Shown piece after piece: positions 51,430 through 52,557 of a stretch of DNA of 64,000 bases. The notes beneath the pieces are model-generated. The model had not been told where the DNA came from. It saw only the letters and a list, made by a program, of their open reading frames with translations, and did no database searches. Position 1 is the stretch's first letter. Every line of letters begins with the position of its first letter. The DNA comes from Escherichia coli (lineage in GTDB: Bacteria; Pseudomonadota; Gammaproteobacteria; Enterobacterales; Enterobacteriaceae). The translations under genes were made by a program, and so were the position numbers. Where the stretch lies: the NCBI RefSeq assembly GCF_030013595.1, contig NZ_CP122768.1. The stretch is one strand, 5' to 3'.

Positions 51430-52557
51430 ATGAAAGTTAAAGTACTGTCCCTCCTGGTCCCAGCTCTGCTGGTAGCAGGCGCAGCAAACGCTGCTGAAGT
51501 TTACAACAAAGACGGCAACAAATTAGATCTGTACGGTAAAGTAGACGGCCTGCACTATTTCTCTGACGACAAGTCTGTAGATGGCGACCAGACCTACATG
51601 CGTCTTGGCTTCAAAGGTGAAACTCAGGTTACTGACCAGCTGACCGGTTACGGCCAGTGGGAATATCAGATCCAGGGCAACAGCGCTGAAAACGAAAACA
51701 ACTCCTGGACTCGTGTGGCATTCGCAGGTCTGAAATTCCAGGATGTAGGTTCTTTCGACTACGGTCGTAACTACGGCGTTGTTTACGACGTAACTTCCTG
51801 GACCGACGTACTGCCAGAATTCGGTGGCGACACTTACGGTTCTGACAACTTCATGCAGCAGCGTGGTAACGGCTTCGCGACCTACCGTAACACTGACTTC
51901 TTCGGTCTGGTTGACGGCCTGAACTTTGCTGTTCAGTACCAGGGTAAAAACGGTAGCGTAGATGGCGAAGGCATGACCAACAACGGTCGTGGTGCTCTGC
52001 GTCAGAACGGCGACGGCGTTGGCGGTTCTATCACTTATGATTACGAAGGCTTCGGTATCGGTGCTGCAGTTTCCAGCTCCAAACGTACTGATGATCAAAA
52101 TGGTAGCTACATCAGCAATGGTGTAGCTCGTAACTACATCGGTACTGGCGACCGTGCTGAAACCTACACTGGTGGTCTGAAATACGACGCTAACAACATC
52201 TACCTGGCTGCTCAGTACACCCAGACCTACAACGCAACTCGCGTAGGTTCCCTGGGTTGGGCGAACAAAGCACAGAACTTCGAAGCTGTTGCTCAGTACC
52301 AGTTCGACTTCGGTCTGCGTCCGTCCCTGGCTTACCTGCAGTCTAAAGGTAAAAACCTGGGTGTCATCAATGGTCGTAACTACGACGACGAAGATATCCT
52401 GAAATATGTTGATGTTGGTGCGACCTACTACTTCAACAAAAACATGTCCACCTACGTTGACTACAAAATCAACCTGCTGGACGACAACCAGTTCACTCGT
52501 GACGCTGGTATCAACACTGATAACATCGTAGCTCTGGGTCTGGTTTACCAGTTCTAA
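51430..52557 (+). CDS. ompC: outer membrane porin C
   Basis: 375-aa ORF: signal peptide [21 protein letters not shown], beta-barrel, C-terminal LVYQF. Confidence 0.93.

Follow-up and report, generated by a model that had tools for sequence, protein, structure and literature searches.

The 2016 catalogue of Beck et al. covers over 220 OmpC proteins of E. coli and distinguishes 33 types of loop L4, 30 types of L5 and 13 types of L7, occurring in many combinations (PMC5056734). E. coli porin genes have since been described as undergoing 'mosaic evolution', in which the hypervariable regions of the extracellular loops recombine locally, and 15 OmpC groups were described (10.1101/2021.09.21.461324). 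In the case of phage PP01, the adhesin gp38 docks in the cleft between L5 and L7 of O157 OmpC; the L7 motif GVIN is needed for PP01, and grafting GVIN alone turns K-12 OmpC into a receptor. PP01 tolerated single-residue changes in L5 (PMC12892980), so variation in L5 need not matter for this phage. The lambda gpJ chimeras A8 and 1A2 display allele-dependent delivery across 23 natural OmpC variants, with 1A2 working on the EDL933 variant and failing on that of MG1655 (PMC11338833), and the complex of A8 gpJ with EDL933 OmpC is represented by PDB 9wcb. Recognition by the contact-dependent toxin CdiA-EC536 is set by L4 together with L5, and many OmpC alleles are unrecognised (PMC5056734).

Here, we describe the ompC allele found in a 64,000-nucleotide stretch of E. 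coli DNA, referred to below as the window. The gene (51430..52557, + strand) is an intact ORF with an ATG start, encoding 375 aa plus the stop (protein WP_064225515.1), and its nucleotide identity to the ompC of E. coli 2012C-4221 is 100%. We consider it highly probable that this is the intact chromosomal ompC of E. coli at its canonical site, in the form of a natural and previously deposited loop-cassette variant.

Placement of the differences from K-12 OmpC

The initial annotation had called this gene an ompC of 375 aa, longer than that of K-12, by comparison with a reference length of 367 aa. The MG1655 record (b2215, located between ftp/apbE and micF/rcsD) bears out that length, its 1104 nt corresponding to 367 aa, and the window protein is longer by a net 8 aa; the peptide strings quoted at the time (4/4) are also all present in the window translation. 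BLASTP aligns the two proteins with 348/379 identities, so the allele is not identical to that of K-12. Being longer than K-12 is in itself unremarkable, because OmpC spans 363-376 aa across the 19 genomes that we sampled, and the OmpC of CFT073 likewise reaches 375 aa by a different route.

The differences were placed on two loop maps, which agree with each other: the crystal-structure-based alignment in S1 Fig of Beck et al. 2016 (PMC5056734), whose boundaries are approximate, and DSSP assignments on an AlphaFold2 model of the window allele. Thirty-one alignment columns differ, of which 2 are in L1, 9 in L4, 13 in L5, 5 in L7 and 2 in strand beta10, and with either map 29/31 of them fall in external loops, as had been proposed from the sequence. 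When counted on the approximate map of Beck et al., differences amount to 29/136 in loops vs 2/249 outside them (Fisher p = 2.2e-12). The signal peptide (21 aa; 51430..51492, +), after which mature PDB chains start at query residue 22, is the same as in K-12, and L2, L3, L6 and L8 have no differing column either. The change in length is made up of three indel sites: 4 residues are missing from L4, in the NGxxxGE...TNNGR segment, 8 are gained in L5 after RTDxQN, and 4 (GVIN) are gained in L7 after KNL, giving the net difference of +8 aa.

Loop L1 (SDDKSVD; 51562..51582, +) carries two substitutions relative to K-12, N47D and D49S. Loop L4 (51946..52002, +), of Beck type c7, is 4 aa shorter and has 5 further substitutions. 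Loop L5 (52084..52152, +), of Beck type b5, contains the 8-aa insertion YISNGVAR (52108..52131, +), the exact placement of which depends on the alignment and which is predicted to form a short beta-hairpin. Loop L7 (52354..52392, +), of Beck type e, is the same as that of O157:H7 OmpC and includes GVIN as residues 311-314 (52360..52371, +), missing from K-12. The sole non-loop differences are in a segment of strand beta10 (52063..52071, +), where the conservative substitutions G212A and I214V are both common among the sampled alleles. The barrel strands and C-terminus had been expected to be conserved; this holds for the C-terminus, which reads YQF with the aromatic Phe last, and for nearly all of the barrel, while the two beta10 substitutions depart from it.

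Codon usage is not uniform along the gene. Major codons account for 39/61 codons (64%) in the variable loops vs 226/285 (79%) in the rest of ompC (p = 0.013), GC3 is 0.47 in the variable loops vs 0.59 elsewhere, and the loops have CAA, AAT, GAT and GTC where the barrel has CAG, AAC, GAC and GTT. Such usage would be compatible with cassettes that are imported or rapidly turning over.

Cassette distribution and mosaic recombination

The exact window protein is found on 275 contigs in public collections, and is annotated in 2012C-4221, NY1601 and an O158:H23 strain; at the nucleotide level, 42/5430 matching records have an ompC identity of at least 99%. Its L4, L5 and L7 each equal a type listed in S2 Table of Beck et al. 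(c7, b5 and e, respectively), and a text search of the accessible part of S1 Table of that study matched neither the c7/b5/e combination nor WP_064225515. The loop repertoire had initially been described as strain-specific, a description that we withdraw, as the same protein occurs on these 275 contigs, several complete genomes that are unrelated to one another carry it, and all three variable loops had already been catalogued. Carriers of individual cassettes were counted by short-query megablast, taking alignability over at least 80% of the cassette length: the long L5 of the window's family is present in 566/5426 complete genomes (~10%), and a short c-type L4 in 2895/5426 (~53%). The identity bands returned by these L4 and L5 queries are confounded by partial, flank-only alignments, and only the counts at a coverage of at least 80% are usable. 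The exact protein, the polymorphism of the loops, the modularity and mosaic origin of the cassettes, and their effects on phages, gpJ vectors and CDI are all already published or deposited.

Between positions 40000 and 64000, the window is nearly the same as two UK pig isolates, HCP5S3_I2 and LCP30S3_I5 (11 SNPs in 24 kb), and the source strain is closely related to them. An ompC-specific divergence from these nearest genomes was considered and rejected, since ompC accounts for 2/11 SNPs over the 24 kb, no significant excess. In both isolates, OmpC has the substitution D53Y beside L1 (window position 51586; WP_475690699.1), together with a synonymous change at 51454; these changes may reflect genuine micro-variation or errors in the assembly of long reads. 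In both isolates, too, ~1.3 kb of IS3-family transposase sequence is inserted between atoS and rcsC; the window has no such insertion at the corresponding site (~44306-44310). Among the matches listed with an ompC identity of at least 99.2%, 21/41 complete-genome records are of pig origin, including ETEC and O139:H1 edema-disease strains; this association of the allele with pigs may be due to sampling bias, many of the records coming from one ETEC series.

Across 16 distinct OmpC proteins (from the 19 sampled genomes), the cassettes assort freely. L4-c7 is paired with L5-b5 in the window, with b1 in AREA_R504 and with a c-type L5 in THO-015, L5-b5 is also paired with L4-c1 in 2013C-3033, and L7-e is seen with both short and long L5 types. 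The ompC of Ec1120 and that of the window are 15 codons apart, and 11 of these codons lie within a 14-codon L5 block (alignment columns 231-244), and the same OmpC protein adjoins different rcsD and apbE alleles. Nucleotide diversity peaks over L5, at a pi of 0.30 vs 0.01-0.04 in the flanks. Compared with K-12, dS is 0.43 in the variable loops and 0.06 elsewhere (~7-fold), and pooled pN/pS, as a crude Nei-Gojobori estimate, is 0.43 in the variable loops vs 0.06 elsewhere. Since dN and dS are both raised in the loops, the cassettes appear to be old and divergent and to have been swapped between strains, as opposed to arising by recent point mutation. The pattern in the window ompC is the published pattern of mosaic recombination.

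The L5 of Ec1120 is itself outside the 30 L5 types of Beck et al., the nearest being b3, with T for K, and the catalogue is therefore evidently larger than it was in 2016. Elsewhere in the window, nucleotide diversity climbs to 0.083 in the 5' portion of ada (53948-54037) vs 0.02-0.04 in the neighbouring sequence (18 sampled strains). A degenerate-pattern scan for the b-family long L5 in 100,044 species-representative genomes, with one genome per species and a fixed frame and pattern, gave 0 matches, which is weak negative evidence against a donor of this loop beyond E. coli.

These data also bear on whether the loop differences have any adaptive or receptor-specificity meaning, or are instead the outcome of neutral drift in weakly constrained loops. 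Drift would fit the pooled loop pN/pS, which lies below 1, the tolerance of PP01 for point changes in L5 and the lower use of major codons in the loops, and the crude ratio is compatible with either diversifying selection or relaxed constraint and cannot distinguish the two. However, loop dS is raised as well, ~7-fold, and the cassettes remain discrete, staying intact and reassorting where drift would have blurred them. The protein has also been kept over up to 0.5% synonymous divergence, the ompC of O158:H23 differing from that of the window by 6 synonymous and 0 nonsynonymous changes, and loop cassettes have been shown experimentally to switch recognition by phages and in CDI. We consequently regard neutral drift as an unlikely explanation. 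We favour a scheme in which loop cassettes that are old and divergent are reassorted between lineages of E. coli by short-tract (mosaic) recombination, and in which surface-binding agents such as phages, CdiA toxins and antibodies may select for the upkeep of these cassettes, as the literature favours.

Predicted structure, locus and regulation

A first AlphaFold2 alignment, composed of 19 near-identical E. coli alleles, yielded a pLDDT of 28 and was discarded. The alignment used instead held 76 sequences, including diverse porin representatives, and gave a model of the window allele with a pLDDT of 91.2 and a pTM of 0.88, in which DSSP assigns 16 barrel strands. This model matches solved OmpC structures (2xe1, 2j1n and 9wcb) with target-normalised TM-scores of 0.95-0.98 and an rmsd of 1.5-1.8 A; the values against K-12 OmpC (2J1N) are 0.96 and 1.7 A. 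The L5 insertion is modelled as a short surface beta-hairpin (strands 226-229 and 232-235; block pLDDT ~79-83), and GVIN forms the tip of the extended hairpin between beta14 and beta15. None of the solved E. coli OmpC structures that we found has a long b-type L5.

OmpC variants with changed antibiotic transport are among the solved structures (2xe2, 2xe3, 2xe5 and 2xg6), and the window allele might by analogy have an altered pore that affects permeability or antibiotic resistance, like the L3 insertions of OmpK36 or the clinical OmpC20-33 series. Against this, its constriction loop L3 (51772..51849, +, including PEFGGD) is 100% the same as that of K-12, so there is no pore-narrowing change, and beyond L1, L4, L5 and L7 only G212A and I214V are changed, both of them common among alleles. 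A change in pore constriction was rejected on the identity of L3, and we consider an altered pore very unlikely. The window allele probably encodes an ordinary and functional osmoporin whose pore resembles that of K-12 and whose outer face is altered. The protein would be a 16-stranded, trimeric general-diffusion porin; its barrel and constriction loop, like the regulatory region of the gene, essentially match K-12.

The window protein scores 759.6 bits with the NCBIfam model for porin OmpC (NF007841; cutoff 484), whereas the OmpF model (472; cutoff 583) and the PhoE model (449.8; cutoff 599) both remain under their cutoffs, and it also matches Pfam Porin_1. The gene order rcsD, micF, ompC, apbE is the same in the window and in K-12: rcsD (48019..50691, -) and apbE/ftp (52669..53724, +) are the upstream and downstream neighbours in canonical synteny, and the small RNA gene micF (51003..51096, -; Rfam RF00033, 118.7 bits vs a gathering score of 79) is divergent from ompC. 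An assembly or sequencing artefact, or a paralogue mistaken for ompC (ompN, nmpC, phoE or a prophage porin), would have nothing in its favour save the difference in length from K-12, and is refuted by this synteny, the intact ORF, the presence of the same protein on 275 independent contigs and the model scores, which leave it a negligible chance.

The 180 nt upstream of ompC (51250..51429, +), which we take to be the OmpR-box/promoter area and 5'UTR, show zero differences between the window and K-12, and on account of this sequence identity ompC expression would be expected to be controlled as in K-12. Downstream of the gene, a GC-rich stem-loop with a T run after it (52576..52595, +) resembles a terminator. 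Within micF, the window differs from K-12 at 51014 and 51021, both in the terminator hairpin; one of these sites is in the stem, where the pair is G-C in the window and, by our reading, G-U in the K-12 RNA, and the other is in the loop. A third micF site, 51025, is variable among other strains. On the opposite strand, an ORF of 364 aa with a TTG start (51523-52617, -) runs over nearly all of ompC. A Pfam search with it gave no match, and we rejected it as a gene; it is most likely a frame that is stop-free because of the strong codon bias of ompC on the sense strand.

Surface recognition and comparison with described OmpC alleles

The outer surface of the window allele differs from that of K-12 by its set of known loop cassettes, an L1 of the DDKSV type together with L4-c7, L5-b5 and L7-e, and this cassette set may change the docking of phages or CDI effectors. 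The initial annotation had linked the loops to phage and colicin receptor specificity and to serum or antibody recognition. For phages and CDI, the relevance of loop variation is well supported with other alleles, and we infer by analogy that it extends to the window allele; the A42H allele, which shares L4-c7 and L7-e with the window, is unrecognised by CdiA-EC536 (PMC5056734). A link to serum or antibody recognition, drawn from the general and not from allele-specific literature, is plausible. The link between OmpC loop variation and colicins is weak; colicins mainly translocate through OmpF instead of OmpC.

The window allele has the PP01-type GVIN, and its L1 and L7 match those of O157 exactly. 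The 8 additional residues of its L5 fall exactly at the point where Ser225 and Pro226 of O157 OmpC contact gp38, and in the window protein these two PP01 cross-link contacts have been either substituted or shifted. The allele would keep the L7 determinant of PP01-like gp38 adhesins while adding an 8-residue L5 hairpin; in O157 OmpC, one wall of the L5-L7 cleft entered by gp38 is made up by L5. A tentative and rather improbable reading of this arrangement is that the b5 hairpin sterically shields the L5-L7 cleft. On that reading, c7/b5/e would be a naturally occurring variant that escapes GVIN-dependent T-even (PP01-like) phages, and perhaps also lambdoid gpJ tips that bind OmpC, with porin function kept. 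Were this shielding to occur, enrichment of the allele in pig-associated E. coli would reflect phage pressure in that niche. The practical value of the analysis is one of annotation, as phage therapy or vector design for the strain should take note of the O157-type L7 (GVIN), the short c-type L4 and the long b-type L5.

Compared with K-12 OmpC (b2215, NP_416719.1; PDB 2J1N), the window allele has the same locus, signal peptide, loops L2, L3, L6 and L8, C-terminal YQF and presumed OmpR-box/5'UTR region, and the same barrel save for beta10; it is unlike K-12 in the two L1 substitutions, the L4 shortened by 4 aa, the L5 and L7 lengthened by 8 aa and 4 aa (GVIN), respectively, and G212A/I214V in beta10. 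The B088-type OmpC (WP_000865573.1; e.g. 2013C-3033), entered as c1/b5/e by Beck et al. 2016 (PMC5056734), is likewise 375 aa long, has the same L5 b5 and L7 e, and shares 98.0% nucleotide identity with the window, but has a K-12-like L1 of the DNKDV type, an L4 of type c1 in place of c7 (2 aa) and one substitution in beta14. The KTE205/A42H-type OmpC (WP_001539019.1, L4-c7/L5-b1/L7-e; e.g. AREA_R504) agrees with the window in length, L1, L4 c7, L7 and barrel, and differs in having an L5 of type b1 (GTYVVDNVTHN) where the window has b5.

The CFSAN018748/porcine ETEC-type OmpC (WP_001590387.1) is the commonest close relative, making up most of the 42 records with at least 99% identity. It has the same L1, L2, L4, L5 and L7 as the window and 99.2% nucleotide identity, and is unlike it in three substitutions at the 3' end: L to V in beta14, Q to R in L8 and N to D at the L8/beta1' junction. 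From the 3' end of ompC onwards, CFSAN018748 (2400-3800; window ~52350-53724) diverges from the window, with 94.6% identity in the intergenic region and 91.9% in apbE, and this drop in sequence identity suggests a recombination breakpoint within or just past ompC.

Among solved chains, the closest to the window protein is O157:H7/EDL933 OmpC (WP_000865552.1; PDB 9wcb). The two proteins have the same L1, the same L7 including GVIN and the same residues throughout the barrel, and their L4 loops, of type c2 in O157 and c7 in the window, are 2 residues apart, whereas the L5 of O157:H7/EDL933 OmpC is of the short a6 type (DDQNSPLYIGNGD) and that of the window is the long b5.
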